From contig OY282356.1 in the NCBI GenBank assembly GCA_958295535.1, positions 2,404,378-2,468,377 on the forward strand: a stretch of 64,000 bases of DNA, in the 5' to 3' direction. How positions within the stretch are numbered: position 1 is the stretch's first letter; the number at the start of each line of letters is the position of its first letter. Below the pieces are notes generated by a model. The model saw only the letters and a list, made by a program, of their open reading frames with translations. It was not told the DNA's origin and ran no database searches. Below are positions 7,147 to 27,960 of the stretch, in pieces. Position numbers and translations under genes: made by a program. This DNA comes from Gemmatimonadota bacterium (GTDB lineage: Bacteria; Gemmatimonadota; Gemmatimonadetes; Palauibacterales; Palauibacteraceae).

Positions 7147-7293
7147 GAGTCTTCGGACAGTTCTGCCCGAGGGGAGCCTGCCCGACGCCGGACTATGGCC
7201 TCCTGGCCGGCTGAGGGCGTGCCGGCCGAGAGCGTGCCCGTTGAGAGGGCGCCCCGTTGAGAGGGCACCGACTGATAGGGGCCGGCTAAGAGG

Positions 7294-11792: not shown

Positions 11793-12773
11793 CTAGCCGA
11801 GCAACTCCTCGACCGCCGCGCGCTCCTCCCGCAGCTCCATGTCCGTCACGGCCATGCGGCTGCGGCTGAAGTCGGTCAACTCCAACCCCTCGACCACCGA
11901 GTAGTCCCCTCCCGCGCACTTCACCGGGTGCGAGTAGACAACTCCCTCCGCCACGCCGTAACGACCCTCGGCGTGGACCGCCATGCTCGTCCAGTCGGCG
12001 GATGGCGTCCCGTTCACCCAGCTTCGCATGTGGTCGATCGCCGCCGATGCCGCAGAAGCGGCCGACGACGCTCCCCGCGCGCCGATAATCTCGGCGCCCC
12101 GCTTCTGCACCCTGGGGATGAAGGATTCTCGATACCAGCTTTCCTCCACCAATCCGGCTGCCGGTTCGCCGGAGACGGTGCAGTGAGAAATGTCCGGATA
12201 CTGCGTCGCCGAGTGATTCCCCCAGATCGTCATGCGCCGGATGTCCCGCGAGTGCGCGCCCGTCTTCCCGGCAAGCTGGCTTAGCGCCCTGTTGTGGTCG
12301 AGCCGCGTCATCGCGGTGAACTGGCGGCGGTCCAGTCCGGGAGCGTTGGCCGACGCGATCAGGCAGTTGGTGTTCGCCGGATTCCCCACCACGAGGACGC
12401 GAACGTCGGGCGAGGCGCTCTCGGAAAGAGCCATGCCCTGCGGACCAAATATCTTTCCGTTGTCGGCCAGCAGATCGCCTCGTTCCATCCCGGCGCCGCG
12501 CGGCTTCGCCCCGACCAGCAGCGCATAGTCGGCTTCGTCGAACCCCTCGTTGGCATTCGATGTGCTTACAACCCCGGCCAGGAGCGGGAAGGCGCAGTCG
12601 TTCAGCTCCATCTCGACGCCCGCCAGCGCACCCAGCGCGGGCGGTATCTCGATCAGTTGAAGCACCACCGGTTGATCCGGCCCAAGCATGTCGCCCGCGG
12701 CGATCCTGAAGGCAAGGGCGTATCCGATGTTTCCCGCCGCTCCGGTGATGGCTATCCGTGATGGTTCAGTCAC
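11793..12773 (-). CDS. mdh: Malate dehydrogenase (NAD-dependent, LDH-like type 2 MDH).
   Basis: 326 aa. N-terminal Rossmann motif [12 protein letters not shown]. Conserved MDH motifs (RLDHNRA, TIWGNHS). Confidence 0.85.
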
Positions 12774-13251
12774 ATTGCTATCCGTGCTCGCTCGGTGATC
12801 CGTAGTTGGTCGGTCGTTATCGCGCTTGGCCAGTCATAGCGCTTGGTCGGTCATAGTCGGTCGCAATGGTCGCAACGACGGTTGCAGGGCACAATATAGC
12901 ACTGCTCCGCTACCCTCATAGTTACGTGACCGGTAAACTCCTGCTGGCACCGGTCGGCAACGGTATTGGCCCCGGCGGGATGCGCTACCGGCCCCGGTCG
13001 GAAATGGCGCGGGCCCCGGCGGGCGACCCCTTGTCCGAACTCCGCCAGCACATGGATCTGTCCGCCGCGCGGGCGTGACGCTACCGGGCCCGCCGACGAT
13101 AGGGATTCTTGGCCGCACGGGCGAGCGCCCCGTCGATTATGGCCAACCGGCGACAGACCTCGGTTGCGCCGTCCGGGACCATCGCTTCCCGGATGGGCGG
13201 CGGAAGAAGAACTTCAGGGCGCGGCATCAGCGAAGAGTGCGGCAACTGGGC

Positions 13252-13323
13252 ACAACGCCAGACGCGGCGCCAAGCACAACGCCAGACGCGGCGCTAGGCA
13301 CAGCGCCAGATGCGGCCCCATAC
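13252..13323. repeat. 24-bp tandem repeat x3 (GCACAACGCCAGACGCGGCGCCAA-like) in the long intergenic region upstream of the symporter operon.
   Basis: Three consecutive near-identical 24-mers read directly. The same intergenic region also contains TCATAGCGCTTGGTCGG x2 near 12825-12860. Confidence 0.6.
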
Positions 13324-13417
13324 GCGGAGAGAATAGCTCATCACACATACCGCTGTTGGCCGACAAGACTCCGAACGAGCCGGACCGGCGAAACCTGCCG
13401 CCCCGGCCTGCCGGGGC

Positions 13418-13924
13418 ATGGCGCTACTACTCGCGCTCGGCGCGATCCTTCTCGCGATGCTCGTTGCCGCAGTCATAGCGGGCGCCGGGCGAGGGGGCCC
13501 GGCTCCGCACCCCGAGTACGGGCCGATGCTGCAAGGCATCGATGGCGGAACCCTGGGCGCTCCCCTCTGGGCGGGCTACGCCGCGGGGATCGCGACCATC
13601 GGCATGATGTGGCTCATGATGAGGATAGGGATGAGGCCCGGCCACTGGATCCACCGCGTGATCACCGGCTGGACGGCCGCGTACATCCTCATCTTCATCT
13701 TTCTAATGCAGTCGTTCGGCGGCTACGCCAGCGGCACGACAGGCACCTTCCTCGGCTTCGCGACCCCCACTGCCTGGCTGGTCTACGGCATCGGTTTCGC
13801 GCCCTGGATTCCCCTGCTGGCCTTGACCCTGTCGTTCGAGAACGCATACGCCGGCCCCGAGGCGGAGGCCCGTTTCCGCGAGATACTAGCGGAGTCCGGG
13901 GCGGCGTCCCGGCCGGACGCCTAG
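13418..13924 (+). CDS. Small polytopic membrane protein, probable small subunit (DUF4212-like) of a sodium:solute symporter.
   Basis: 168 aa, very hydrophobic with 3-4 predicted TM helices. Ends 21 nt before the SSS transporter gene on the same strand. Confidence 0.5.
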   Translation: MALLLALGAILLAMLVAAVIAGAGRGGPAPHPEYGPMLQGIDGGTLGAPLWAGYAAGIATIGMMWLMMRIGMRPGHWIHRVITGWTAAYILIFIFLMQSFGGYASGTTGTFLGFATPTAWLVYGIGFAPWIPLLALTLSFENAYAGPEAEARFREILAESGAASRPDA

Positions 13925-13945
13925 CCGCCGGGAAAGGACGGGCCG

Positions 13946-15436
13946 GTGGAAGCGAATCGGGCGCAGATCGCTCTTCTGGCCATAGTCGGCTACATGCTGC
14001 TCTGTGTCGGCGTCGGACTCTGGTCGCTCGGACGGACGAAATCGACGAAGGACTTCTTCGTCGCCGGGCGACGCTTGGGCGTAGTGGTCACGGCGTTCGC
14101 GATCTTCTCCACCACCATGAGCGGATTCGGTTTCGTCGGCGGCCCCGGGCTCGTGTATTCGATGGGTACCAGCTCGATCTGGATACTCTCCACGATAGTC
14201 TCTTCCAACATCATCGTCCTCGCCCTTGTGGCGAAACGTCTGCGGATGGTGGCGGAGCTTCGAGGCTGCGTATCGCTTCCCGCCGTGGCGGCCGCCCGCT
14301 ACGACTCGCGTTCGGTGCAGGCATGGGTCGCGGTAGTGATCCTGCTGGGCGTGCTGGGCTATCTGGCCACCCAGATACTGGCGATGTCGTTCGTGCTTCA
14401 GAGCGTCCTGGCCGCTGCGGGAGTCTTCCAGGCGCCAAGCCTGGGGCTCTGCGTCGCCATTTCCTGCACGGTGCTGATCTTCTACTCGGTGACCGGCGGG
14501 ATCGTCGCTTCCGTCTACACGGATGTCGTTCAGGGGGCGATCATGATCGTCGCGGCGGTCCTTGTCTTTCTCACCGTTATCGGGACAGTGGACGGCGGCA
14601 TGGCGGAGATCAGCCGAATCGTGGCGCGGGACGACCGGGCGGCGGGCGGACCGTGGGGAACTCTCGGCATGATCGGCGCGCTGTCGTGGTTCTTCGTGTT
14701 CGGCCTGGGCGTGGCCGGACAGCCCCACATCGTCACCAAGTTCATGATGCTCAAGCGATTGGGCGAACTGCGGTACGTGATACCGCTCAGCGTTCTCGCG
14801 TACACGACGACGGCGCTTCTCTGGATCGGCATCGGCTTCGCCATGCGCGCCCTGGTGATCTCCGGAGCGCACCCGCCGCTCGCGGCCCCGGACGCCGCCT
14901 CAGCCGACTTTCTGCAGGCGGTGGCCCACCCCATCCTGGCGGGCGTCGTCTTCGCCGCGCTTCTCGCCGCCATCATGTCGACGGCTGACGCGTTCTTGAA
15001 CATCGGCGCTGCCGCCGTGATGCACGATCTCCCGAACGCGATCCGGGGCCGCTCGCTCCGCAACGAACTCGCCTGGGCCCGCATCGTCACGGCCTTGCTG
15101 GCCATCGCGGCCGCGCTCGTGGCACTCTACTCCGGCGATCTCGTGGCCCTGCTCGGCGCATTCGGCTGGGGCACCTTCGCCGCAGGTCTTGTTCCGGTAA
15201 TCGGGATCGGACTCAACTGGGCCCGGGCGAACGCCGCCGCCGCGAACGTCGCCATCGCAAGCAGCATCATCGTCAACTTCGGGCTCCGGCTAGGGGGCGT
15301 TCGCCTGCCTTACGGGATCGATCACGGCGCCGCCGCCCTGCTGGTCTCGCTCGTCCTCTTTCTTTCTATCTCGTTCTTGTCCAGACCGGCAGCCTCGCGG
15401 ATTCCCCGCGATATCGAGGATGTCATGAGAATCTGA
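13946..15436 (+). CDS. Sodium:solute symporter (SSS family) transporter.
   Basis: 496 aa. Multi-TM. Conserved SSS N-terminal region (KSTKDFFVAGRRLGVVVTAFAIFSTTMSGFGFVGGPGLVY). Confidence 0.8.
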   Translation: MEANRAQIALLAIVGYMLLCVGVGLWSLGRTKSTKDFFVAGRRLGVVVTAFAIFSTTMSGFGFVGGPGLVYSMGTSSIWILSTIVSSNIIVLALVAKRLRMVAELRGCVSLPAVAAARYDSRSVQAWVAVVILLGVLGYLATQILAMSFVLQSVLAAAGVFQAPSLGLCVAISCTVLIFYSVTGGIVASVYTDVVQGAIMIVAAVLVFLTVIGTVDGGMAEISRIVARDDRAAGGPWGTLGMIGALSWFFVFGLGVAGQPHIVTKFMMLKRLGELRYVIPLSVLAYTTTALLWIGIGFAMRALVISGAHPPLAAPDAASADFLQAVAHPILAGVVFAALLAAIMSTADAFLNIGAAAVMHDLPNAIRGRSLRNELAWARIVTALLAIAAALVALYSGDLVALLGAFGWGTFAAGLVPVIGIGLNWARANAAAANVAIASSIIVNFGLRLGGVRLPYGIDHGAAALLVSLVLFLSISFLSRPAASRIPRDIEDVMRI

Positions 15437-15665
15437 AGTCGGGTCGGCCGACATCGATGATCTAACGTGAATCCGGCATCGGCGCCTCGCGAGCACGCAC
15501 ACGCCGCCACGCTCGATGAGGCGTGTGTGGCCAAGCCCGACTCCTTGTGCGCGACACCGGACCGTCGCAACCGTACTATGGTGTGCAGTTTTGAAGTCAT
15601 GATGATGTGCAGTTGACTTCGCGCGCACCCTGCGTCCCGGTCCCCGTAACCTCTGTCCATAGACC

Positions 15666-17150
15666 TTGGAGAGCCTGCCAATGCAAATGTCGAGCGCCGT
15701 CCGAATCCCGAGAATCTCGTCCGCCTTCCGTCCGTTCATAGGCGGATTCGCTCCTCTCTGCGCCGTGCTCGTATCTGGAGCCGCCATTGCCTTCGCGCCC
15801 TGCGGACTCGGCTTCAGACCGCTTGCCGGCTTCGGACCGCTTGCCGAACTCGCCCCCTCCGCCGCCCAGGAACGGTGGTTGGCGATCGAGGGCGGAACAG
15901 TCTTCGACGGCACCGGGGCCATTCACGAGAACGCGACCGTGCTGGTGCGAGACGATCGCATCGAGAAGATCGGGCGGGCAGGCGAGGTAGAAGTCCCGTC
16001 AAGCGCGGAGCGACTAGACGCCACGGGCAAGTTTCTTGCGCCAGGATTCGTCGACTTGCACTTCCACTACTCGCCCGGCGCGCACGCGTCGATCGATGGA
16101 TCGGGTGCGGACTCTTCCCCCGGGCTGCCCCTTCTCTTCCTGGCCAACGGAGTCACGACGCTCCGCGAGATGGGCATTTGGATAGAGGACAACGAGCGCT
16201 GGCTGTCCGAGGTGCGCGACTTGGGGCTTCCCACGCCGCGTCTGTTGTACTCCGGCCCCATTCTGGACGGGACTCGCCCCGCCTACCCCACGCTATCCAG
16301 GGTGTTGCTCGACGAGATGGATGCGCGCGCGGTCGCCAACGAACTCATGGACCAGGGCGCGACATCGTTGAAGGTGTACTTCCGGCTGCCGGCATCGCTG
16401 GCCGGCGCTGTGATAGAAGAGGCGGACAGGAGAAATGTGCCGGTTCACGGGCACCTGGAGATCGTCTCTCCGGGTGACGCGATCCGGCTAGGACTCGACG
16501 GCATCGAGCACACGAGATCGGTAGGGCAGGCGCTGGTCTCGCCGAAGGAGGCGGAGGCGTATCGGCAGGCCGTGCTGCTAGAGAGCGCGCACCGGTCGGA
16601 GGGGGGCTACGAACTGTGGGCCGGCCTGGACCCCCACGGACCGAGGGGAGAAGAGCTCATCCGCCTCATGTTGGAGCGGCAGGTCAATCTCGATGGCACG
16701 CTGGCCGTATTCGAGCCGCCGATGGATTCGGAAGAGCCTGGAGTCGAAGTGCGGTGGGCGGGGATGCGCACCATGGCCGCGTTCACCGTTCGCTACGCCA
16801 AAGCTGGCGGTTCGGTCACCATGGGATCGCACGGCTTGGTGGCGAATGCGCCGCCCGGACTGGCCTTCCAGCGCGAGTTGGAGACGCATGTCGAGGCCGG
16901 GATGACGCCGGCCGAGGCGCTTCTTGCCGCGACCAGAGTCGGCGCGGAGGCGCTGCGGCTGCCCGACCGGGGCACGCTGGTGCATGGCAATCTGGCCGAC
17001 ATCGTTCTCTTCGACGCCAGCCCGCTAGACGACATCGCGAACGCTCGCCTGGTTCATGCCGTTGTCCTGGGCGGCCAAGTGCTGGATCGCGACCGGCTGA
17101 TTGCAGCGGCGGGCGACCTTCAAGCCCGCGAGGCGTCGGGTTCCCGCTGA
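15666..17150 (+). CDS. Amidohydrolase-family metal-dependent hydrolase (secreted), second copy.
   Basis: 494 aa. N-terminal hydrophobic signal-like segment. Amidohydrolase motifs (FVDLHFHY, HGHLE, C-terminal Asp motif). Same layout as the gene at 37-1821. Confidence 0.75.
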   Translation: MESLPMQMSSAVRIPRISSAFRPFIGGFAPLCAVLVSGAAIAFAPCGLGFRPLAGFGPLAELAPSAAQERWLAIEGGTVFDGTGAIHENATVLVRDDRIEKIGRAGEVEVPSSAERLDATGKFLAPGFVDLHFHYSPGAHASIDGSGADSSPGLPLLFLANGVTTLREMGIWIEDNERWLSEVRDLGLPTPRLLYSGPILDGTRPAYPTLSRVLLDEMDARAVANELMDQGATSLKVYFRLPASLAGAVIEEADRRNVPVHGHLEIVSPGDAIRLGLDGIEHTRSVGQALVSPKEAEAYRQAVLLESAHRSEGGYELWAGLDPHGPRGEELIRLMLERQVNLDGTLAVFEPPMDSEEPGVEVRWAGMRTMAAFTVRYAKAGGSVTMGSHGLVANAPPGLAFQRELETHVEAGMTPAEALLAATRVGAEALRLPDRGTLVHGNLADIVLFDASPLDDIANARLVHAVVLGGQVLDRDRLIAAAGDLQAREASGSR

Positions 17151-17369
17151 ACTCAGGCTGTCCGCGACATCAGGCTCCCGCTGACCCTCGGGGTTTCTGC
17201 GACCTCGCAGGCTGCCCGTGCCTCCCAGGCTGCTTGTGACTCTTAGACTTCCTGCGATCCTAGGCTCTCGCTGACGCCGACAATCTCTCTATCGCTTCCT
17301 GCGTTTGCGTTCGTTCTTCCTGCGTCGGTGTTCGTTGCGTAGTACGCTCTTGCAGTCTTTCGGTCCGCT

Positions 17370-18272
17370 TTACCGCGCCGCGCCCAGCAGGTTGGCTCCT
17401 CCAGACCCCGACCCCCCGAAGCTGTACCGCAAGCCGACCGTGAGACCAAGGTAGGAAATGCTGTCCAGGGTGACCGTTGTCGTAAAGGGCGTAGTCCCGT
17501 CCGACTGCACAGGCGCGTGGCTCCGGATAGCGACCCAGCGAGCGTTCTCCGCCTGAACCATGCCCGACCTGGACCAACGGAACTTCGTCACCAGCGCAGT
17601 ATTGCCCGAGAGCGCGAATTCGATGCCGCCGACAGCTTGGTAACCCAGCGCCATGCCCGACACGGAAGCGTTCAGCAAACTCATCGTGCCCTCGGCAGAG
17701 TTCTGCCACTCCAGATCGCCTAAATCGGTCTTGCGCACCCAGCGGCCCATGTAGGTGGCATCCGTTCTTGTGAAACCAACGCCGCCACCTGCAAAGAACC
17801 TCACCGCCGATCCGCTCGTGGAAGCCAGGATGTTCAACCCGAGTTGGCTCGACTCGAAGTTCAGAAGACTTGCGGAGGGCGGATCGACAGTAGACCACTC
17901 GCTCTCCTTTGATTGAAGAGCTGCGTCATCGCTTCCGCCCATTCGCACCATCTGGCCCGGCTGCCTGCGGCGCAGGTACTCCAATTCGACGCGTAGCATC
18001 CCCATGGAGTACCCCAGGCTTACCGCGCCTCCGAAGCCCGTAGCCGCGCCGAATTGATTGGTTACGAAGCGTCCGGCCGTGCCGCCAGTGCATGCGGCGT
18101 CGGTCGGGGCGTCGGCGGCATTCGCGTACAGGAGGCGGTCGCACCGGGTAGGGTAGTTCACGCCGAAGAGGTCGCCGGTCACGCCGCCTGCACGGGCAGC
18201 GCCCAAATCGACGCCTAGGTATAGCTGTCCAGCGGTGTGCGTCGCCGCCCCAAACAAGACGACAAACACCAT
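17370..18272 (-). CDS. Outer-membrane beta-barrel protein (OmpA-like/porin-family barrel).
   Basis: Start taken at MVFVVLFGAATHTAGQ (signal peptide). Alternating amphipathic beta-strand pattern. C-terminal strand LRYSF. Gly/Ser/Thr-rich. The ORF-track start at 18389 is an upstream extension. Confidence 0.6.
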   Translation of the reverse strand: MVFVVLFGAATHTAGQLYLGVDLGAARAGGVTGDLFGVNYPTRCDRLLYANAADAPTDAACTGGTAGRFVTNQFGAATGFGGAVSLGYSMGMLRVELEYLRRRQPGQMVRMGGSDDAALQSKESEWSTVDPPSASLLNFESSQLGLNILASTSGSAVRFFAGGGVGFTRTDATYMGRWVRKTDLGDLEWQNSAEGTMSLLNASVSGMALGYQAVGGIEFALSGNTALVTKFRWSRSGMVQAENARWVAIRSHAPVQSDGTTPFTTTVTLDSISYLGLTVGLRYSFGGSGSGGANLLGAAR

Positions 18273-18424
18273 GAGCGCCGCCCGTATACCTGCTCTCGAC
18301 AAGGTCACTGTTCCACTCCTCCTGGTTACGGATGCCCCCGGCTGACGAGCGAGGGGGCGAAGCCTGCAAGCTACTGATCCCAAAGACATTACGTCTGGCC
18401 TGACCTCAGGCCTTACTTCTTCAG

Positions 18425-18497
18425 AAGCGGGCGACCGGGGTCGAACCGGCGACCTTCAGCTTGGAAGGCTGACGCTCTGCCAACTGAGCTACGCCCG
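18425..18497 (-). tRNA. tRNA-Gly (anticodon TCC).
   Basis: Reverse complement folds as a cloverleaf: GCGGGCG acceptor, TCAGC/GCTGA anticodon stem, loop CTTCCAA, GGTTCGA T-arm. About 73 nt. Confidence 0.8.
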
Positions 18498-18727
18498 CGA
18501 GGGCCTCCATCCCGGAGAGAGAAACTGCGTTACGCGACTGCGCTTCCTAGTCGCAGACGGAGGCTTTGAGCGTGGACAAGTGACACCACCGGGAGCGACA
18601 AGTCAACCTGCCCGACCGCGACTTCGCCGCCCGCCACAGCTCGTTTTCCATACGCTGAGTGGGCCAGTACCGTTGGGTCACAGTCCGACAAGAGGGGCCA
18701 TCACTTTGCTGGGATTCCCAAGTCGAA

Positions 18728-19072
18728 CTACTCCTTGAGTATTTCCGCGAAGGACTTTCCGCTCTTTAACATTCTAATGGCTTCGTCCCTACCTCCGAAG
18801 CTTACCCGCAATTTAACCAATTTGTCCCGTTGGGGTTTTGGAAAGGATTTCGCGACCGCGACAGGCCGCAGACGTACCGACTTGTCCACAGGGGAGAGTA
18901 TCTTACCCGCAAATTGCGCACCCGCCTGCAGCTGCGTCCGCACTTTGCTGGCATCAAGCCTGCTTTTCAGTTCCAGCGGGATGACCATATTCTTCTTATC
19001 GATAACGCACAAGAAGTCGCATTTCTCATCTTGTGGTCCTACGCCTAACTCAGCCAACTCATTACAGTCCAT
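18728..19072 (-). CDS. Hypothetical small protein (114 aa) immediately downstream of the islet ATPase.
   Basis: ORF with balanced, charged composition in a low-GC segment. The antisense ORF at 18735-19172 is Ser/Leu-rich and looks spurious. No recognisable motif. Confidence 0.4.
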   Translation of the reverse strand: MDCNELAELGVGPQDEKCDFLCVIDKKNMVIPLELKSRLDASKVRTQLQAGAQFAGKILSPVDKSVRLRPVAVAKSFPKPQRDKLVKLRVSFGGRDEAIRMLKSGKSFAEILKE

Positions 19073-19178
19073 ATCAATAAGAATGCGCTGTCCCCGCAGG
19101 CCCTCAAATCTAACTTTGCAACCCGACCCCTCGCACTTCTTGGCTACACACGCCTTTGGGATTTTGGATTGAACCCTG

Positions 19179-20858
19179 CTAACCAGACTGTCCAGATCTC
19201 AATCCTTCTATGCGATTCGATATTCGCGCATATTTATTGTATGTATCGATTGCAACATCATTGAATCCAGAGGTGAAATCGCCACAGTCCTTTCCAGAGC
19301 GGAAATCGCCACAATCCTCGTCGAACACGAGCTCCGCTACGCGGGTCCCTCCGGCACTCTCATCGGGTTTGAACAACCACAGCCCTAGCTCTTCGGGGTC
19401 GAGTGCAATATATGCATCATCAATACCTGTTCGCCGATCCTCTGGCAGGTCCGATAGGCGTACAAGGTTGGCCAGCTCATCCACAACCCACTCGCTGTGT
19501 GTCGTGATTACGATGCGGACACCCACGTGCACTGCCCTCGCCAGGAGTTTGACGAACTCCACCTGCATCCCGGGATGAAGGTGAGATTCCGGTTCTTCGA
19601 TGAACAGCACATCGCCAACACGAACAGCATGCCGAAGATAGAGCACAACCGGCGCAAGTTCCGACACCATCGACGACGTATGCATGAGCGGCAGATCGCT
19701 TGTCCGTTCATCTTTCCATTCATCGGGACGATACGAGAATTCGGGATATCCCGTTACGGAATTCCTAGCATGGATAGTGCCGCGCAACACATGGATTTCC
19801 AGCGCCTTGGCAACGTCTTCGATGTCGCCCGATGATTCAGACGTGCGATCTCCCAGTCCAATCAGGATGTCCATGAAGTCGGCAAGCACTCCCGAGACCG
19901 TCGGCAACTGGGGTTCCGGGCTAAATCCTGTACGCGCGGCACTACGGACCAAGGAACGTACGATTACTCTGTGAGCGTGCATGATGCCGGTGCGGCTCGC
20001 CGGCAGGTAGTGCGGCACGCTCACCAGAGGATTGAGCAACTCTGCGCCGCACATATCAGTAAGCATCCCCAATACCTCCCTGGCCAATACCGGCCCTTGC
20101 CGGATAGAGGGGATATCATCGTTGGTCGCGACCAGATACTCGATATGCTTCCGAAACTCCGCGAAGTATCGAACGACCTCGGCTGTTTCAGGCGACCCCG
20201 GATACATAGGAACCGAGCTCGGTACCGAAGCTCCTAGACTGGCACTGTCGCCTTTTGTCGCGTACCGGTACTCGACGATGCCGACATCTGATCCTCCGCG
20301 ACGCTCCGCCACAATCTGGATGCCATCCTTGACCCCGTTACGGATCAAGGTATTGGTCTCTTTGACTCCGAAGCACCGGCGAATTTCAAAATCAAGCTGG
20401 TTATCCAGCCTGCGAACATCTTCGAGCCGACGCCGGACGAGCTTTGCAACGGATTCTGGTAGCGCGGCAGGGTTTCTCTCTCTCTCGTTCATTGTCTGCG
20501 CACTGCCCCTAACCCTCTCCGCCCAGCCGATCACCGCCTCAACATCTTCGGTGGAGATATCCATATCGTCATCCCTTGGATCGTGCTCCGGACCAAAGAT
20601 TGAGCGACTGTGCTGGTAGGGATGGTATCTCCGCGCAGAAATCTTGCCGGAGAAAAATCTGTGCAGCGCGTACATGAGGATCGCCAGGTAAGACTTGCCC
20701 GTGTTGCTGGGGCCAACGAACACGGTCATCGGGCGTAGCTTGATCTTCGCCTCGGCGATTGGGCCGAGGTTGGTGACAGCCAGTTCGAGGTTCTTCGACT
20801 CAGATGGTGCGGTCACTGCTCTTGCCCTGGTCGAGTTAAGGCCGTGATCGGCTGGCAT
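19179..20858 (-). CDS. OLD/ABC-type AAA ATPase (AAA_15/AAA_21-like), possibly with a DUF3696-like C-terminus. Candidate defence-system ATPase.
   Basis: Walker A FVGPSNTGKSY near the N-terminus and Walker B/D-loop LFIEEPESHLHP(…)ITTHSEW in the C-terminal third, which is the split ABC-ATPase layout of OLD, AbiL and Septu PtuA-like proteins. Low-GC coding sequence. The ORF-track start at 21494 would overlap the cupin gene, so an internal ATG at 20858 (alternative 21077) is preferred. Confidence 0.65.
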   Translation of the reverse strand: MPADHGLNSTRARAVTAPSESKNLELAVTNLGPIAEAKIKLRPMTVFVGPSNTGKSYLAILMYALHRFFSGKISARRYHPYQHSRSIFGPEHDPRDDDMDISTEDVEAVIGWAERVRGSAQTMNERERNPAALPESVAKLVRRRLEDVRRLDNQLDFEIRRCFGVKETNTLIRNGVKDGIQIVAERRGGSDVGIVEYRYATKGDSASLGASVPSSVPMYPGSPETAEVVRYFAEFRKHIEYLVATNDDIPSIRQGPVLAREVLGMLTDMCGAELLNPLVSVPHYLPASRTGIMHAHRVIVRSLVRSAARTGFSPEPQLPTVSGVLADFMDILIGLGDRTSESSGDIEDVAKALEIHVLRGTIHARNSVTGYPEFSYRPDEWKDERTSDLPLMHTSSMVSELAPVVLYLRHAVRVGDVLFIEEPESHLHPGMQVEFVKLLARAVHVGVRIVITTHSEWVVDELANLVRLSDLPEDRRTGIDDAYIALDPEELGLWLFKPDESAGGTRVAELVFDEDCGDFRSGKDCGDFTSGFNDVAIDTYNKYARISNRIEGLRSGQSG

Positions 20859-21110
20859 CACGGCCAAGGCCGACCTCCAGTCCGCCGACGCTCCGGTCGA
20901 TTGCCCGCGGGGTTCTGTCGTACGGCGGGGTTCTGTCGCACGGCAGCGTACTGGTTCCAACCAAGAACATGAGGATTCATTATCGTCTTGAACAGTCTGC
21001 CGAGGACTTCCGGTCTCGATTGCGCTCCGATACCGCGCCTTCCTATCGTGGCTTTGCGTGTCTTCGTCGTTCGTCATGCCGAGTGACCCAAGTCTAGCAG
21101 GGGATATCAA

Positions 21111-21467
21111 ATGAGCGTCAAAAACATCTCGGAGTTGGAGCTCGAGCCGGTGGCCGCCGGATCCGGTACGGCGAGGCAAGTCCTGATCGGGCCAGAGGAG
21201 GGCCAGAACTTCGCGTTGCGGCGTTTCGTGATGCAGCCGGGGGGAGGCATGCCGCTGCACACGAACACGGTCGAACACGAGCAGTACGTCCTGCGCGGGC
21301 GGGCGCGGGTGTCGATTGGCGATGCCGTGCACGAGGTGAAGGGGGGCGATGTCGTCTACATTCCGGCGGGCACCCCGCATTCCTACGAGGCGGTCGGCGA
21401 CGGTCCGTTCGAGTTTCTGTGCGCGGTACCTAACAAGCCGGACACGATAGAGATAGTCGAGAGCTGA
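21111..21467 (+). CDS. Cupin-domain protein (118 aa).
   Basis: Two cupin motifs (GGGMPLHTNTVEHEQYVLRG and GDVVYIPAGTPHSYEAVG). Diverges from the ATPase gene. Confidence 0.75.
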   Translation: MSVKNISELELEPVAAGSGTARQVLIGPEEGQNFALRRFVMQPGGGMPLHTNTVEHEQYVLRGRARVSIGDAVHEVKGGDVVYIPAGTPHSYEAVGDGPFEFLCAVPNKPDTIEIVES

Positions 21468-21610
21468 CCGGCGCCGAGCGCCGACCGTCGACAACGCTGG
21501 CCTGCCCCGGCCGTGGCTAGACGATCAAGCTGCCGAGCCCGGCTAACCGTGGCCGGGTCCAAGCACGAACGGACCTCGACCTTGACCGGACGGTCAAGCT
21601 GCCGAACCGG

Positions 21611-22846
21611 TTAGCCGCGGCGGCGGGCCGGTTCGCGCAACCCTTCCGCGACTTTCGCAAACGACTCCGTGACGTCCCGCATCTGATCAGCACCGGCCAG
21701 CAACACCTCGTGCTTGATCCAGACAGTCGTGCGGCAGATCTCTTCGCAGACAGGCAGGCGATCGTGCGGCCGCTGCGCGAACCGGCCCCCACCTGCCGAC
21801 CCGGCCCGGCGGGCGGCCCCCGAGACAAAGCCCTGCCGGTATAGCGGCTTGGTGTAGCCGGGGTGCGCCGGGATGCCCTCCGCCCGCAGCGCCTCGATAA
21901 CCCGCGCCCGCCCCGCCTCCAGAAGCCGTCCCCGCAGCCGGATCATGAAGATGTGACAGCCGTGTCCGGTGATCCGGTCGTCGGCATCCGGGAGCAGCAC
22001 GCCGTCGACCTCGGCGAGTCCGGCCGCGAGCGCCTCCATCGCCTCTCGCCGAACGGCCTGCTCTTCGGGCAGCCTGTCCAGACCGCACAGCAACAGCGCC
22101 GCCTGGCTCTCGGCCATCTGAAGGTTCAGGCCCGTTAGAGGGTGTTCGTGCCGCACCCCTCCCGGCTCGCGGCCGCAGTCCGAATAGGCCTTCGCCCGCC
22201 GGTACGCCTCTTCGTCCGCGGTCAGAACCATGCCGCCCTCGCCAGCGGTCAGGTTCTTGCTCGATTGGAAGCTGAACGCGCCCGCAGCGCCGAAAGCGCC
22301 GACGCCCCGGCCCCGCCAGCTGGCGAGCCAAGCCTGCGCCGCGTCCTCGACCAGCGGAATGCCGTACCGGCGGGCGACCTCGCCGAGGCGGTCCATGTCA
22401 GCCGGGCGTCCCCCGATGTGGACCGGCAAGATGGCGGCCGTGCGCTCCGTGACCGCCTCCTCGACCGCCGCCGGATCCAGATTGTGGGTGCCCCGCTCCA
22501 CATCGGCAAAGACAGGAACGGCGCCGATCGACATCGGGGCTAGCGCCGTCGCCGCGAAGGTGTATGGAGTCGTGACTACTTCGTCGCCCGAGCCAACCCC
22601 GGCGGCCACGAGCGCCGCCTGCAGAGCCATCGTTCCGTTGCAGCATGCCACGCCGTATCGCGCCCCGTGCAACGCCGCGAAGCGCGCTTCGGCTTCCGGA
22701 ACCAGCTTCCCCCCGGCGCCCCACCGCCCGGACCGCAGCACACCTTCCAGCGCACGCTTCTCGGCTTCGCCCCAGCGCGGCCAGGAGGGCCAGGGCTCGC
22801 TGCGCACGGGCGGCCCGCCATCAATCGCCAGCCGGTGCCGCGGCAC
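21611..22846 (-). CDS. DegT/DnrJ/EryC1/StrS-family PLP-dependent sugar aminotransferase.
   Basis: 411 aa. Family motifs (CCNGTMALQAAL, DEVVTTPYTFAATA, FSFQSSKNLTAGEGG with the lysine). Confidence 0.8.
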   Translation of the reverse strand: MPRHRLAIDGGPPVRSEPWPSWPRWGEAEKRALEGVLRSGRWGAGGKLVPEAEARFAALHGARYGVACCNGTMALQAALVAAGVGSGDEVVTTPYTFAATALAPMSIGAVPVFADVERGTHNLDPAAVEEAVTERTAAILPVHIGGRPADMDRLGEVARRYGIPLVEDAAQAWLASWRGRGVGAFGAAGAFSFQSSKNLTAGEGGMVLTADEEAYRRAKAYSDCGREPGGVRHEHPLTGLNLQMAESQAALLLCGLDRLPEEQAVRREAMEALAAGLAEVDGVLLPDADDRITGHGCHIFMIRLRGRLLEAGRARVIEALRAEGIPAHPGYTKPLYRQGFVSGAARRAGSAGGGRFAQRPHDRLPVCEEICRTTVWIKHEVLLAGADQMRDVTESFAKVAEGLREPARRRG

Positions 22847-22855
22847 CAGAAAAGC

Positions 22856-24583
22856 TCAGGGCGACCGGAGCGTCGGGTAGGCAATCCCTAGCTGCTCCAG
22901 ATACGTCTCGTACTTCGTCTCGTCGAAGTAGAACGGCTCGATCAGCGGCCTGAAGCGCGCCATGATGTCGACATTCAGGTCTATCGGAGGAGGGTCGTCC
23001 GCCGTGATAAACGGCTGGTACTGCTGGTCCTTGCCCTGCACCTCCCGAAAGTACGTCCACGCGTCCTCGACGAGATCGGGATCAAGGAAGAGCTTGAGCG
23101 CCGTCCGCGCCAGCACCTTGGCCCCGGCTACCGCCCCTTTATGCGCGATAGGGGTCGCCATCGCGATCGCGTTCGACCAGTGATGACCCTGCAACCCCGG
23201 AATGTTCGACGGGAAGCGCAGGGTCACCGTCGGCACGGTCCAACCGATGTCCCCGATGTCGTCCGATCCGCCGCTCCGCCGGTCGTTCTCGCCCTCCGGC
23301 GGCGTCCCGATGCCATCCAGTTCGGTGTTCAGCCCAGGGGTCGATTCGTTCCCGACCTCGGCCTGGACGGCACGCGCCAGCGCCTGGTCGTCGTCATCCC
23401 ACTCGGGAAGGCCGACATGCTCGATCTGCTCCCACATGGTCTCCGCGATGACCTTGTTGAAGTGCCGCGGAGCCGCCGCGCCCCGCACCCTGTAGGTCAT
23501 CTCGGTGTCCGTCATCAGCGCCGCGCCCTCGGCGATCTTCTTCGCGACATCGTAGTTCCGCAGGATGCCGTCGAAGTCCATCTCGCGAATGTAGTACCAG
23601 ACAGTCGCGATCTGCGGCACGACGTTGGGCTGGTCCCCTCCGTCCGGGATGATGTAGTGGGACCGCTGGTTGGGGTGGAGGTGTTCCCGGCGGAAGTTCC
23701 ACCCGATGTTCATCAGCTCGACCGCATCGAGCGAACTGCGCCCCCGCCACGGCGAACCGGCGCTATGCGCAGCCTCCCCCGAGAAGGCGAACTCGACGGA
23801 GACGAGACCTGTCCCGTTCGCCTGTCCCCAGCTCACGCCGAGGTTGTTCCCCACATGCGTGAAGATCACCAGGTCGATGTCTTCGAAGTAGCCGTCGCGT
23901 ACGAACCACGCCTTGCTCCCGAGCTGCTCTTCGGCGACGCCCGGCCATAGAACCAGAGTCCCTTCGATCCCCTCCTCCCGCATGACCTTCTGAAGGGCGA
24001 GCGCCGCCGTGACGTTCACCGCCTGGCCGGAGTTGTGGCCCTCTCCGTGGCCCGGAGCTCCGGGTACGAGAGGCTCGTGCCACGCCACCCCCGGCTTCTG
24101 GTTCGCCTTCGGAATGCCGTCGATGTCGCTGCCGAACGAAATCACCGGCGATCCCGACCCCCACCGGGCGAACCACGCTGTCGGAATGCCCGCCGAACCC
24201 CGCTCCACTTGCCACCCGTTCTCTTCGAGGATGCCCGTGACGTAAGCGGATGTCTCGAACTCCTGCTGCCCCAGTTCGGAGAACGAGAAGATCTTGTCCA
24301 CCATCACCTGCGCGAGTTTCGCCATCGAGGCTACCTCGGACTCCACCCGGTCCAGCGCCTGTTGGCCGGACAGCGAGCCGGGCACGGAAGCGAGAGCTGC
24401 CGCAATGACGAGGGCGCATGCCGGAGACGCGACGGAAGTCGGAAGCGGCGGCCAGCTCCAGCCTTGCACGCGCGAGCATCTCTTGCTGGCCTTGCTGCTC
24501 CTGCTGGTCGTGCTGCTCTTGCTGGTCGTGCTGCTCTTGCTGGTCGGACATTCCCTGTCGTGCGATGTCTTGAAGAAAAGCAT
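22856..24583 (-). CDS. M20-family metallopeptidase/amidohydrolase (AbgB/aminobenzoyl-glutamate utilisation-like), secreted. Start is uncertain.
   Basis: Conserved M20 metal-binding region (HEPLVPGAPGHGEGHNSG, dimerisation domain). The N-terminus contains a 21-bp tandem repeat. Signal-like ACALVIAAALASVPG. Confidence 0.7.
   Translation of the reverse strand: MLFFKTSHDRECPTSKSSTTSKSSTTSRSSKASKRCSRVQGWSWPPLPTSVASPACALVIAAALASVPGSLSGQQALDRVESEVASMAKLAQVMVDKIFSFSELGQQEFETSAYVTGILEENGWQVERGSAGIPTAWFARWGSGSPVISFGSDIDGIPKANQKPGVAWHEPLVPGAPGHGEGHNSGQAVNVTAALALQKVMREEGIEGTLVLWPGVAEEQLGSKAWFVRDGYFEDIDLVIFTHVGNNLGVSWGQANGTGLVSVEFAFSGEAAHSAGSPWRGRSSLDAVELMNIGWNFRREHLHPNQRSHYIIPDGGDQPNVVPQIATVWYYIREMDFDGILRNYDVAKKIAEGAALMTDTEMTYRVRGAAAPRHFNKVIAETMWEQIEHVGLPEWDDDDQALARAVQAEVGNESTPGLNTELDGIGTPPEGENDRRSGGSDDIGDIGWTVPTVTLRFPSNIPGLQGHHWSNAIAMATPIAHKGAVAGAKVLARTALKLFLDPDLVEDAWTYFREVQGKDQQYQPFITADDPPPIDLNVDIMARFRPLIEPFYFDETKYETYLEQLGIAYPTLRSP
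24484..24546. repeat. 21-bp tandem repeat x3 (TGCTGGTCGTGCTGCTCTTGC) at the 5' end of the M20 peptidase ORF.
   Basis: Read directly. It encodes SKSSTT repeats on the minus strand. The first copy is degenerate. Confidence 0.7.
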
Positions 24584-24665
24584 TGCCGGCCTCTTGGAAA
24601 ATGGTTTGCAGATGCAGCGCGGACTCACCCGGCAGCAGCCGATCAGAGTGGCCCGGAGAGACTGT

Positions 24666-25370
24666 TCAGGACCCAGCGTTGCAAGCGGGCTCGTTCACGC
24701 GCCGGTAGTCCTCGACGAAAACATCCGTCTTCTCCGCCACGGCCGCGAGCACCGGTGCGGACTCTCCACCGTGCACCCCCATGTGCACGGCCTCCCAGGT
24801 AAGCCCGAATCCTGTCTGGCCGCTCCGCTGGTCGAGTACCCACTTGTGAAAGCCGACTCCGACCCTGAACGACGGTCCTGTCACATGAATGTTCACCATC
24901 AGGTGCGCTTCGGGGGATTCGCCAGTCGGCGCAGCATCCGGCGTTGCATCGGGCGCTGTCTCGGCCGGGGCGTGGATGGTGGACAGATCGGATGTGCCAA
25001 GCAGCTGGGCCGCCCGCAGCCTGTCATCCACCAACTGCCGCACGCTTTGTCCGGTCAGGCCCTCCAGCGGCCCAGCGTGATCGGTCAGGTCCTCGAGAGC
25101 GCCACCGGCATCGATATAGGCGAGGGACCCGATCCGTTCGCATTCGTTGAAGAGCTGGAAACGTTCGAGGGCCGATCCCTCCGCCGCCACATGCGCGACC
25201 GCGGATTCCTCCGTCTCGCCGGCTGTCGGGGACTCTGCGGCGGCGGCAACCGGGGACCGACTCCCACCAGCAGTTGGGGACTCGGCGTCGACCGCCGGGG
25301 ACTCGGTGCTGGGCGGAGCGCACGACACAAGGAAGCAAGCTAGAGCGCACAGCCCGCAGGAAGCGGTCAC
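24666..25370 (-). CDS. Secreted lipoprotein of unknown function, paralog A. Non-ATG start is likely.
   Basis: Lipobox-like CALACFLVSCAPP. C-terminal two-thirds align with the neighbouring ORF (RFxLxNxC, SRLRAAxL, WxxGxHGG, FVEDYRRVNEPACN). The ORF-track ATG at 25526 overlaps the upstream gene. Confidence 0.5.
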   Translation of the reverse strand: MTASCGLCALACFLVSCAPPSTESPAVDAESPTAGGSRSPVAAAAESPTAGETEESAVAHVAAEGSALERFQLFNECERIGSLAYIDAGGALEDLTDHAGPLEGLTGQSVRQLVDDRLRAAQLLGTSDLSTIHAPAETAPDATPDAAPTGESPEAHLMVNIHVTGPSFRVGVGFHKWVLDQRSGQTGFGLTWEAVHMGVHGGESAPVLAAVAEKTDVFVEDYRRVNEPACNAGS

Positions 25371-25402
25371 GGTACGCAGCGCTTCGCCGATGATCCAGAC
25401 TC

Positions 25403-25888
25403 CTATCCGCAGGCGTCTTCGTTGATGCGCAAGTACTCCAGCACAAAGTGGTCTAAGCGTTCTGATAGGTTCTGCATTATGAAGCCCGCATCTCCGCCGT
25501 GCATTCCATAACGGCCCCTCTGCCAAGTAACGGCCCTGCCACTTCGTTCAGATGCAGAATCGTATAGGGCCTTATTGAACTGAAGAGTTATGCTGTACGC
25601 GCCTTGTTCGCGGTAGTCCGATACAAGCACCCCGACATTCACATACAGATAGGGAGTCGCGTCAGCATCGTACAGCCGAGCAGCTCGGAGGCGGCTTTCC
25701 GCCAACACTTGTACACGCTCCCTGGTCAGCCCTATCGCGTCTCCCTCTTCAGGAACGTCCGCGACTACAAGGTCTATCTGTGCGCACGCGTTGTATAGTC
25801 GGAACCGGTTGAGCGAGTCGGCTTGCGCCGCTGATCGGCTAGGTAGCGCGACGGCCAAGACAGCAACGATGACGAACACAGTTCGCAT
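25403..25888 (-). CDS. Secreted protein of unknown function, paralog B.
   Basis: Signal peptide MRTVFVIVAVLAVALPSRSAAQA. Shares conserved blocks with paralog A. Ends EYLRINEDACG. Confidence 0.5.
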   Translation of the reverse strand: MRTVFVIVAVLAVALPSRSAAQADSLNRFRLYNACAQIDLVVADVPEEGDAIGLTRERVQVLAESRLRAARLYDADATPYLYVNVGVLVSDYREQGAYSITLQFNKALYDSASERSGRAVTWQRGRYGMHGGDAGFIMQNLSERLDHFVLEYLRINEDACG

Positions 25889-25954
25889 TAGCGCTCCTTC
25901 CAACAGCCGGGCCGGGAAACGACGCAGCCCCGCACGCTCGACCAGCCCGAAAAG

Positions 25955-26039
25955 CGGAGGGGGTGGGATTCGAACCCACGTGGGCTTGTCGCCCGCCGGT
26001 TTTCAAGACCGGTGCATTCAACCGCTCTGCCACCCCTCC
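25955..26039 (-). tRNA. tRNA-Ser (anticodon TGA), long variable arm.
   Basis: Reverse complement GGAGGGGTGGCAGAGCGGTTGAATGC(…)CTTGAAA(…) has a long variable arm and GGTTCGAATCC T-arm. About 85 nt. Confidence 0.75.
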
Positions 26040-26125
26040 ATGCAACCGCTCTGCCACCCCACTTGGCAACCGTCCTGTCACCCTTTTATGGAGATGCGAG
26101 CCGGACATCATCGGCTACGAAAACA

Positions 26126-26198
<73 letters not shown>

Positions 26199-26337
26199 AC
26201 GCCAAGTGGGCCTCGATCGTGCTGTATCGCGAACTCTCCAGCGCGTGGATGCTGCTGCCTTCCACGGCTGGCTATCCGCTGGCTGGCTATCCGCCGCATT
26301 TGCTGGCTACGCCGCTGCACTTCGGGTGATGATCTCA

Positions 26338-26411
26338 TGGGGCGGGAGGGACTCGAACCCCCGACTTCTGCGATGTGAACGCAGCGCTCTAGCCAACTGA
26401 GCTACCGCCCC
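26338..26411 (-). tRNA. tRNA-Val (anticodon CAC).
   Basis: Reverse complement GGGGCGGTAGCTCAGTTGGCTAGAGCGCTGCGTTCACATCGCAG(…)GGTTCGAGTCC(…). Anticodon loop TTCACAT. Confidence 0.7.
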
Positions 26412-26540
26412 TCCTCCACGCGGCCCGCGCCAAGCCGCCGAACCGACTTTACCCTGCCGCCGCTAACCGCGCCACTCCGGAGACCCCCCGCCCGCACTGC
26501 CAACCTCTACACATCGGACGGCTCCAGCCCCTCGCGTCAT

Positions 26541-27545
26541 TCAGTTGCGCCACGGCATGAAGAGCCTGGAAAGAGAATCCACATTGTCCTCGACGAATTC
26601 CCGGAAAGACTTCTCCGTGTTCGCGCGCGTCGAAATGTAACACTGCTGACATGTGTTCTGTTTCGTAAAGCGCTCCAGCATGTCCTCCTGGCGGTCGAAG
26701 TAGGCCATCACCATGGCGCACGGCGTAAGCCGCCCGTCGGGATTGATCACGAGAAAGCGGCGCCCCGCCTGGCAGCCGGGAATCCCCTCCTCCGTCAGAA
26801 AGCGATGGAACTTCCACAGAACGCGCGGCGTGGTGTACACCGGATATCCGGCGCTACGCAGGTCTATTACCTCCTGGATGCTGTCGGCCAGCCCGTCGAG
26901 GCCGTCCCCTTCGATGAGACCGCTCCTGTCCTGCACTCGGAGGTGGGTGTAGACGGAGAAGTTGATCGGGACGCCCCAATCCTTCGCGACCCGCACCATG
27001 TCGCCGATATCCTTGTAGTTCCACGCGGTGATGCAGACGTTGAGAAGGATGTCGTCTTTGTCGTCGCTGGTCCGCGCGATCTCCGGCACCACCCTGGCCA
27101 TCCGGTCGAAGAGGCCGGGGATGCGGCGAAACTCGTCGTGTCGTTCGTCCGGGAAGTCGAGCGACGTGGACAGCTGGTGCATTCCGCTGTCCTTGAGTCT
27201 GAAGAAGCGCTCGGGCGTCAGATTCGACGCGTTAGTAACGACGACCATCCACGGCAGGCCGCCTTTGTTCGTCATCGCATCGACGATGTCGTAGACGTCC
27301 CCGCGCGCCAGCGGCTCGCCTCCCGACGCGTGCGAGACCACGGGCCGAAGCTCCCGGCAGATCGCGGCGTAGTCCTCCGCGCCCAGGCGCTCTTCCTTGA
27401 TCGGTCCGCCCCAGTTGCAGTGCCAGCAGTTTGCGGTACAGGCGTGGGTGATCTCGAATGACACCGAGAGCGGCTTGTCCTGGAATCGGTTCCGGATTCC
27501 GCGCGCCAGCATGCGTACGGCCATCCCCCCAGAAATGTTCGGCAT
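26541..27545 (-). CDS. Radical SAM enzyme with a C-terminal SPASM/twitch-like Cys cluster.
   Basis: CxxxCxxC motif (HACTANCWHC) near the N-terminus. C-terminal CQAGRRFLVINPDGRLTPC(…)CQQC auxiliary-cluster motif. 334 aa. Confidence 0.8.
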   Translation of the reverse strand: MPNISGGMAVRMLARGIRNRFQDKPLSVSFEITHACTANCWHCNWGGPIKEERLGAEDYAAICRELRPVVSHASGGEPLARGDVYDIVDAMTNKGGLPWMVVVTNASNLTPERFFRLKDSGMHQLSTSLDFPDERHDEFRRIPGLFDRMARVVPEIARTSDDKDDILLNVCITAWNYKDIGDMVRVAKDWGVPINFSVYTHLRVQDRSGLIEGDGLDGLADSIQEVIDLRSAGYPVYTTPRVLWKFHRFLTEEGIPGCQAGRRFLVINPDGRLTPCAMVMAYFDRQEDMLERFTKQNTCQQCYISTRANTEKSFREFVEDNVDSLSRLFMPWRN

Positions 27546-27689
27546 CCGTCGCCCTCTCTCTTGACGCTTGTCGCTCGGACCCGGTGGGGGCCCCGCTTAT
27601 CCCGCAGCTTCGACAGTACTACGCGGCCCCGTCTCTATCGGGGGCAGCCCTCTGCCTCTCGGGTGGCCGCTACCGGCCTCGCGCTCCAG

Positions 27690-27960
27690 ACCAACTCCAA
27701 GCCTTGAGCGCCTGAATCACCTGCCAGCCTCGAGCGCCCGGATCAACTTCCAGCCCCTGCGTTCCGGATCAACTTCCAGCTTCGCGCCCCCAGAATCACC
27801 TGCGAGCCGCACGCTCCAGAATCAACTCCAAGCCTTGCGCCTCGGGTCAACTCCCAGCCTTGAGCACCCGGATCAACTCCCAGCCTCGCGCCCCCAGAAT
27901 CACCTGCGAGCCGCACGCTCCAGAATCAACTCCAAGCCTTGCGCCTCGGGTCAACTTCCC
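27690..27960. repeat. Degenerate tandem array, about ten 26-27-bp units (consensus CCAGCCTYGCGCCCCCRGAATCAMCTY), between the radical SAM and DedA genes. It includes a roughly 100-bp segmental duplication.
   Basis: Read directly. Units are contiguous with no unique spacers, so this is not a CRISPR array. The plus-strand ORF across it translates to proline/serine repeats and is probably non-coding. Confidence 0.7.

Follow-up and report, generated by a model that had tools for sequence, protein, structure and literature searches.

A probable WonAB-like ATPase–nuclease defense module, divergent in sequence, in an insertion between the cupin and tRNA-Gly genes of a Gemmatimonadota genome

The stretch of Gemmatimonadota bacterium contig OY282356.1 analyzed here over its full length of 64 kb (the window) contains an AT-rich islet in which the gene for a large ATPase is followed by the gene for a small protein. 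We consider it likely that these two genes form a divergent phage-defense module of the WonAB / PD-T4-4 kind, composed of an ATPase and a nuclease, that was inserted between a cupin gene and a tRNA-Gly gene. As both components are homologous to the WonAB group, the pair is, on sequence comparison, a divergent subfamily of that group and not a strict, model-passing member of PD-T4-4 or PDC-M47. An earlier note on this DNA had suggested a horizontally acquired two-gene defense or abortive-infection module that matched no named system. The first of these suggestions is supported by empty insertion sites in relatives, the linkage of the two genes, the nuclease fold of the small protein, the homology to WonAB and the defense-island contexts of other family members, whereas the second gives way to the relationship with WonAB, PD-T4-4 and PDC-M47.

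WonAB, which is encoded by the WASA-1 prophage of V. cholerae, consists of an OLD-ABC ATPase and a variant PD-(D/E)xK nuclease (Adams et al., 2025; PMC12137116), and its authors see a relationship with the "OLD-ABC ATPase + novel REase" operons described by Krishnan et al. (2020) and with PD-T4-4. Both genes are needed, and WonAB alone is necessary and sufficient for defense, which is lost in mutants of the WonA Walker and H-loop (ATPase) motifs and in WonB K71A. Infection is aborted via translation arrest while the DNA stays intact, and the toxicity of excess WonB depends on the presence of active WonA. WonB is an unstable protein, predicted to dock on the C-terminal extensions of dimerized WonA (PMC12137116).

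For the comparison with WonAB we used the WonA/WonB and OLD-ABC/Novel REase sequences of the supplement to that paper, with five WonA/OLD-ABC sequences in the ATPase alignment by hhalign. The family of the window ATPase aligned with WonA (probability 99%, E 6.4e-18) over 176 columns corresponding to window residues 312-511, a stretch that starts at the signature motif and takes in much of the C-terminal extension, and the Walker B and H-loop of the window family align to the WonA profile. The nuclease family aligned with WonB/Novel REase (probability 89%, E 2.1e-6), and the C-D, E-L-K-G and Q motifs of the two sides line up, so that window residue K77 falls on the lysine of the WonB-family E-L-K (K71 in the E. 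coli WonB homologue). In both cases the ATPase gene comes first and the nuclease is small (~140-170 residues) with N-terminal cysteines. There are also clear differences. The window-family ATPases have 505-550 residues vs. roughly 330-450 (~100-200 residues longer) because their insert is much larger, and the Walker B glutamate is E408 in the window vs. E300 in WonA. In the window-family nuclease the N-terminal C-x4-C-x4-C module is longer and a C-terminal cysteine is conserved, the small gene starts at CTG in the window's clade, and the genes of the window family are located on chromosomes of uncultured bacteria represented by metagenome-assembled genomes.

The start of the ATPase gene was fixed at the GTG at 20816, giving a protein of 545 residues that matches its homologues at the N-terminus, because full-length homologues begin MTAPSE..NLEL. 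The protein had been described as an OLD/ABC-type AAA ATPase whose Walker A and B motifs are widely separated, and this description holds: the Walker A (GPSNTGKS), Walker B (FIEEPESHLHP) and H-loop (TTHSEW) motifs are all present, and Pfam AAA_15 (1e-22) and AAA_21 (7e-12) were matched. A large insert occupies residues ~56-310 and a C-terminal extension residues ~446-545. Walker A K41, R275 in YLPAxRTG, the signature-like SSMVSE at 381-386, Walker B E407/E408 and H-loop H440 are invariant across 27 family members, the window included. R275 is presumably the counterpart of WonA R182, as judged by the similarity of YLPAxRTG to FIPAxRS; with R275 so assigned, each of the WonA positions that were mutated (K34, R182, E300, and H333) has its aligned residue in the window ATPase. 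A DUF3696-like tail that had been proposed for the protein was not borne out, as no Pfam DUF3696 match was obtained at E<=1; plasmid proteins annotated as DUF3696 align with the ATPase by tblastn solely over the Walker B lobe. No NCBIfam model came near its cut-off.

The ATPase family is large, with ~5000 proteins passing among the candidates scored; the best 120 homologues listed have 42-53% identity (98% in one case) over ~96% of the length. An OLD nuclease (6p74) was the sole match in a PDB sequence search, and an AlphaFold2 (AF2) model of the window ATPase (pLDDT, or predicted local distance difference test, 79) was closest to PtuA, in Septu and retron complexes, and to Rad50. The window protein has one irregular feature. 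A 27-nucleotide (nt) duplication adds nine residues (CGDFRSGKD-CGDFTSG) in an otherwise conserved FGGFRSGFD motif of the C-terminal extension; none of the 26 aligned homologues has this addition, and the segment at 511-516 has low pLDDT. It appears to be common to the window and its 98% relative, locus L001 (loci compared with the window are referred to by L numbers), in which the ATPase has 544 residues.

The small gene extends further upstream than had been thought. The open reading frame of 114 residues (ATG at 19072) is an N-terminally truncated call of a protein of 155 residues: upstream of that ATG the frame meets no stop before 19199-19201, and homologues conserve the residues it encodes there (…LVSRVQSKIPKACVAKKCEGSGCKVRFEGLRGQRILID-MDC…). 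In 80 loci the partner is a protein of ~155-160 residues, and its usual start is an ATG or GTG at M-x-x-L-V that abuts or overlaps the ATPase stop. No ATG, GTG or TTG precedes the conserved N-terminal part in the window, L001, L002-L006 or L008. A CTG is common to these eight loci, which aligns with the Met start of the homologues within one residue and is preceded at 6-8 nt by the Shine-Dalgarno-like GGAGG, GGAGA or AAGGA (in the window, AAGGA and then 7 nt). Because the CTG is conserved and aligned, with a Shine-Dalgarno sequence, in all eight, we placed the start at CTG 19195, resulting in an overlap with the ATPase gene of 17 nt. The two open reading frames of the earlier note are therefore both real and in the same orientation as stated, with their sizes corrected from ~560 to 545 residues and from 114 to 155. 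The 114-residue form would be without three core strands and the cysteine module. Gene callers shorten the small gene in this clade (to 94, 103, 114 or 130 residues) or omit it entirely. The miscalls have three causes, namely initiation at CTG, overlap with the ATPase gene and the absence of a Pfam family, and as a consequence standard defense finders would probably not report the system here.

The small protein itself is a nuclease of the PD-(D/E)xK restriction-endonuclease fold with an intact D...ExK motif, in keeping with the suspicion that it might be the effector and removing the objection that no nuclease partner could be recognized. Its AF2 model, based on 60 homologues, has a pLDDT of 94.5 and a predicted template modeling score of 0.90. 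The predicted catalytic site consists of D60, E75, K77, and Q88, with D60 at the start of one core strand and E75-L76-K77 ending the next. Among 52 relatives E75 and Q88 are invariant, D60 is present in 51, and position 77 is lysine in 41 and threonine in 10. E-L-T also replaces E-L-K in 54 of the 60 sequences of the protein-database homologue alignment, a large subfamily. The conserved cysteines are C16, C21, C26, C59, and C145, and it is here that the window copy departs from its relatives: position 145, cysteine in 50 of the 52, is serine (codon 18761-18763), and position 63, phenylalanine in 49 of the 52, is cysteine (codon 19007-19009). The same two residues, Ser at 145 and the unusual Cys at 63, are found in L001. 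The two changes could represent a compensatory swap within a putative metal-binding cluster formed by the five cysteines. No Pfam model or PDB sequence relative was found for the nuclease, whose family comprises ~1330 clusters at 50% identity. Pfam, NCBIfam, and PADLOC scans of the 114- and 155-residue forms from the window returned nothing significant; the homology surfaced solely via family-level scans and profile-profile comparison.

The second named system to which the pair is related, PD-T4-4 of E. coli, was isolated via functional selection for anti-phage defense (Vassallo et al., 2022; PMC9519451). It consists of a P-loop ATPase and a PD-(D/E)xK nuclease (PMC10952713; 10.1101/2025.07.10.664194), and it cleaved no DNA substrate in vitro (10.1101/2025.07.10.664194). 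The window pair resembles it in having a P-loop/ABC ATPase with a PD-(D/E)xK partner directly downstream. PD-T4-4_A (2.4e-32) was the best PADLOC match of the window ATPase, ahead of PDC-M47A (2.9e-28), AriA (1.8e-22), and NsnB; GajA, Old, PtuA, and HEC-01A/02A ranked next, with matches confined to the Walker B/H-loop lobe. The match to PD-T4-4_A is not full length, however, and consists of two separate stretches, the best at 373-473 of a 559-residue query; the ATPases align just at the Walker A and Walker B/H-loop regions (89 columns in hhalign). For comparison, a genuine PD-T4-4 pair on an Escherichia marmotae plasmid (L084) scored 1.3e-262 (positions 1-482) and 3e-108 on the PADLOC models, and for the ATPase its alignment with the window family is confined to the C-lobe. 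Three of the 52 nuclease relatives match PD-T4-4_B (best 5.2e-6), and a weak hhalign alignment has the same CD / (D/E)xK / QL motif order, whereas the PD-T4-4 B protein is larger (190-209 residues) and the window nuclease has no PD-T4-4_B match at E<=1.

PDC-M47, a candidate two-gene system of PADLOC-DB v2, is likewise a distant relative. The window ATPase matches PDC-M47A in part, and 32 of the 52 nuclease relatives match PDC-M47B (best 2.5e-7) from the cysteine module through the catalytic core. These matches are partial and weak, and the window's own nuclease falls below detection. PD-T4-4_B also matches PDC-M47B, indicating that the PDC-M47B model bridges the families. With Septu PtuA, PARIS AriA, Gabija GajA, and P2 OLD the window pair shares an ABC ATPase sensor of the same broad clade and the logic of a sensor that controls a nuclease, PtuA being the nearest solved structure. 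The difference is in the effector, here a stand-alone PD-(D/E)xK protein as opposed to an HNH protein (PtuB), a DUF4435 TOPRIM protein (AriB) or a fused TOPRIM domain (GajA, OLD); neither window protein had a TOPRIM, DUF4435 or HNH match in Pfam or PADLOC.

Evidence for insertion comes from composition and from relatives with an empty site. The GC content of 18499-21100 is 55.9%, compared to 66.4±1.8% in all other 2.6-kb windows of the 64 kb (z = -5.9), and the region has both the lowest GC and the largest tetranucleotide deviation of the 64 kb, a signal that is far beyond chance composition. The description of an AT-rich islet beside tRNA-Gly(TCC) and a divergent cupin gene is thereby upheld, the flanking genes having been identified with ARAGORN, Rfam, and Pfam (Table 1). 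Comparison with relatives also established the absence of the islet from the corresponding site in two of them. Syntenic relatives were located via a neighboring DegT-type aminotransferase, the nearest being from sponge metagenomes: contig LXNI01000002.1 of the Sarcotragus foetidus metagenome (L088) and contig LXNJ01001123.1 of the Petrosia ficiformis metagenome (L090). Both carry the DegT (64-68% amino acid identity) and cupin (78-79%) genes and a tRNA-Gly(TCC) that is 100% identical to that of the window, and L088 additionally has the amidohydrolase (78%). The distance from the cupin start to the tRNA 5' end is ~110 nt in both, vs. 2612 nt in the window, and the ATPase and nuclease genes are absent from the site. 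Since the syntenic relatives hold just these ~110 nt, we interpret the islet as an insertion, the borders of which are blurred by the divergence of the intergenic DNA between the window and L088/L090.

Table 1. Features of the ATPase–nuclease islet and its edges (window coordinates)
Feature	Positions	Strand	Basis and remarks
tRNA-Gly(TCC)	18426..18498	-	ARAGORN and Rfam; one edge of the insertion site, outside the module
Spacer, nuclease stop to tRNA 5' end, 229 nt	18499..18727	-	Hypervariable between window and L001
Small PD-(D/E)xK nuclease, WonB-like, 155 residues	18728..19195	-	Proposed CTG start at 19195-19193
OLD-clade ABC ATPase, WonA-like, 545 residues	19179..20816	-	Pfam, PADLOC, family alignment, hhalign, AF2
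27-nt tandem duplication within the ATPase gene	19266..19318	-	Repeat search and family alignment
Non-coding region upstream of the operon, divergent from the cupin gene, 294 nt	20817..21110	-	Sequence and repeat search
Cupin gene	21111..21467	+	Pfam Cupin_2 (1.3e-17); other edge of the insertion site, outside the module

The position of the islet beside a tRNA gene had been regarded as a pointer to horizontal acquisition, and this argument was not sustained. Integrative elements that target tRNA genes usually insert on the tRNA 3' side, and the insertion here is on the 5' side of tRNA-Gly. In a scan of 60 other loci the pair never had a tRNA as its direct neighbor, so that tRNA adjacency is not a trait of the family. 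The islet contains no integrase, no transposase and no att-like flanking direct repeat of the tRNA, on which grounds a classical tRNA-integrating element was rejected. On the 3' side of tRNA-Gly, L088 has at 12744-16500 an open reading frame for a HipA-like kinase, a PIN-like fragment and a transporter where the window has its beta-barrel gene, which makes the tRNA locus a hotspot of variation on either side. The window gene in question, just past the tRNA at 17370-18389, encodes a protein of 339 residues with the look of an outer-membrane beta-barrel and has no detectable counterpart at the syntenic L088 position. The region upstream of the operon yielded no consensus sigma-70 promoter. It does contain two tandem direct copies of an 18-nt repeat (GCGGGGTTCTGTCGTACG, 94% identical) at 20907-20942, 90-125 nt upstream of the ATPase start, which may be an operator or other regulatory site. 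The stretch with the second-lowest GC of the window (25401-28002, 62.5%) holds three tRNA genes at 25954-26411 (Ser-TGA, Gly-CCC, and Val-CAC).

The two genes travel together. In 82 of 83 homologous loci the ATPase gene is immediately followed by the nuclease gene on the same strand, with an overlap or a gap of a few nt. A genome scan of GTDB species representatives identified at least 589 loci, and the best 80 of these derive almost entirely from metagenome-assembled genomes of Dehalococcoidia, Poribacteria, Latescibacterota, Caldilineaceae, Gammaproteobacteria, Vicinamibacteria, Nitrospinota, Thermodesulfobacteriota, and Poriferihabitaceae, several of which we take from their names to be sponge-associated lineages. 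The family shows both duplication and decay: L027 has two tandem copies of the system (5995-9895), the first with a truncated nuclease, L014 has an orphan ATPase (5974-7569) followed by an MFS transporter gene, and L007, L019, L030, and L037 have frameshifted or truncated nuclease genes. Some Latescibacterota genomes carry two separate copies (L020 and L045 in OZ253501.1; L026 and L077 in OZ241986.1).

The surroundings of the pair vary. Genes for DUF499 and DUF1156 are both within 6 kb in 14 distinct loci, and in L009, L022, L029, and L043 the pair is situated exactly between them. It is also embedded in DUF499/DUF1156 (PLD-helicase) surroundings in L012, L035, L038, L048, L070, L071, L074, L075, and L087. 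We take such DUF499 (ATPase), DUF1156 (methylase), and PLD-helicase neighbors to represent Hma-type (helicase-methylase-ATPase) systems. The BREX genes PglZ and BrxL are near the pair in L002, an MmeI-type enzyme and a PLD-helicase are nearby in both L002 and L003, and in other loci the immediate neighbors are a type II restriction-modification pair, an HNH gene, or toxin-antitoxin genes of the PIN or HepT type. Most loci (~60 of 84) have neither DUF499/DUF1156 nor restriction-modification neighbors, and in L170, as in the window, the pair is found among housekeeping genes.

By analogy with WonAB, we propose that the ATPase would dimerize around ATP and hold the nuclease inactive on its C-terminal extensions. 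The variable regions of the ATPase insert would sense a phage-derived cue, upon which the nuclease would be switched on in an ATPase-dependent manner and would cleave host nucleic acid, aborting the infection. A translation-related RNA would be a more likely target than bulk DNA, because WonB stops translation without DNA degradation and PD-T4-4 cleaved no DNA in vitro. Weak initiation at the conserved CTG, with translational coupling to the ATPase gene, would keep the toxic nuclease sub-stoichiometric, an idea that fits the toxicity of WonB only in excess of WonA.

Several points weigh against the proposal of a WonAB-like defense module. The window's subfamily is known from its sequences alone, and the trigger, target, and abortive outcome given above are inferred by analogy. 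The window nuclease reaches no PADLOC B-component model, and the similarity of the ATPase to PD-T4-4_A and PDC-M47A is confined to conserved ATPase lobes. The replacement of the catalytic lysine by threonine in a large sister subfamily implies that the chemistry may differ within the family. Unlike for WonAB, carriage by phages or prophages was not seen: there were no IMG/VR matches and no full-length match in the phage and plasmid collections, which returned solely distant, partial ATPase matches. Finally, the C145S change and the nine-residue duplication in the conserved motif of the ATPase C-terminal extension could impair function.

The last of these points leads to the alternative that has most in its favor, namely that the window copy is an inactive or decaying remnant of a horizontally acquired defense module, which we consider unlikely. 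In addition to C145S, the cysteine in place of the usual Phe63 and the interruption of the FGGFRSG motif, it could cite the small gene's lack of an ATG, GTG or TTG start and the decay seen elsewhere in the family. The CTG with its Shine-Dalgarno sequence is, however, common to eight loci of one clade and is therefore conserved, which a lesion would not be. The copy retains every catalytic and nucleotide-binding residue, and neither open reading frame is broken in the window or in L001, two strains that have diverged. Between these two the synonymous to non-synonymous differences number 9:10 in the ATPase and 7:8 in the nuclease gene, a rough ratio of non-synonymous to synonymous rates of ~0.4, which is not neutral and suggests moderate constraint on both genes. 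The right flank (21300-26400) differs at one position in 5 kb, compared with 1-2% in the islet and left flank, while the spacer between the nuclease and the tRNA has 73.5% identity with indels and the tRNA and cupin genes are 100% identical. When window positions 13200-26800 are aligned to L001, the divergence shifts sharply at the cupin-side edge of the islet, which suggests a recombination boundary, and hypervariable intergenic patches are seen at ~15300-15600, 17100-17400, and 18600-18900.

A less probable alternative still is that the pair is an accessory sensor-effector that needs a larger Hma-type or restriction-modification system and is orphaned in the window. The loci with both DUF499 and DUF1156 genes, above all those with the pair exactly between them, and the MmeI-type or type II restriction-modification genes that directly abut the pair in other loci are what such an accessory would lead one to expect, but the majority of loci without such neighbors are not. 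Moreover, genes embedded in Hma systems are usually autonomous defense systems (Payne et al., 10.1101/2024.01.29.577857), and WonAB suffices by itself (PMC12137116). We also give very little credence to a selfish, toxin-antitoxin-like addiction cassette with the nuclease as toxin, the ATPase as antidote and no role in phage defense. While the cassette is small and mobile, has two genes, a nuclease that is likely toxic and PIN, HepT, and HipA toxin-antitoxin genes as frequent neighbors, the toxicity of WonB requires WonA and its ATPase activity, the opposite of an antitoxin (PMC12137116), and both validated relatives, WonAB and PD-T4-4, protect against phages. That the ATPase is a housekeeping repair enzyme of the SMC/RecF/RecN type with conserved synteny can practically be dismissed despite its ABC ATPase fold and the presence of Rad50 among its structural matches, given that the gene is missing from the syntenic site in L088 and L090, is foreign to the window in composition, is near the cut-off of no NCBIfam housekeeping model, and changes neighborhood from locus to locus.

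Read as a WonAB-like defense module, the pair would add to the validated WonAB / PD-T4-4 type a large clade that is highly divergent and spans many phyla of uncultured bacteria, and in which the effector gene is systematically missed or shortened by gene callers. The comparison with the empty sites provides a compact natural example of a 2.6-kb defense cassette moving without an integrase, and a nuclease throttled by its CTG start is a testable idea for how such systems avoid autoimmunity. The breadth of the clade across phyla, the mis-annotated CTG-initiated nuclease and the possible metal-binding cysteine cluster all make it worth following. More tentatively, and with less conviction than we hold for the module itself, we suggest that this is a distinct WonAB-like clade exchanged across phyla of metagenome-known bacteria, sponge-associated ones included. 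It would be marked by an enlarged sensing insert in the ATPase, by a zinc or iron-sulfur cysteine cluster (C16, C21, C26, C145, and possibly C59) that clamps the N- and C-termini of the nuclease and, in one sub-clade, by an obligatory CTG that throttles nuclease dosage. If this is true, the enlarged insert could mean a different phage trigger, and the loci counted among GTDB species representatives would constitute a major, so far unannotated, defense component of these microbiomes.

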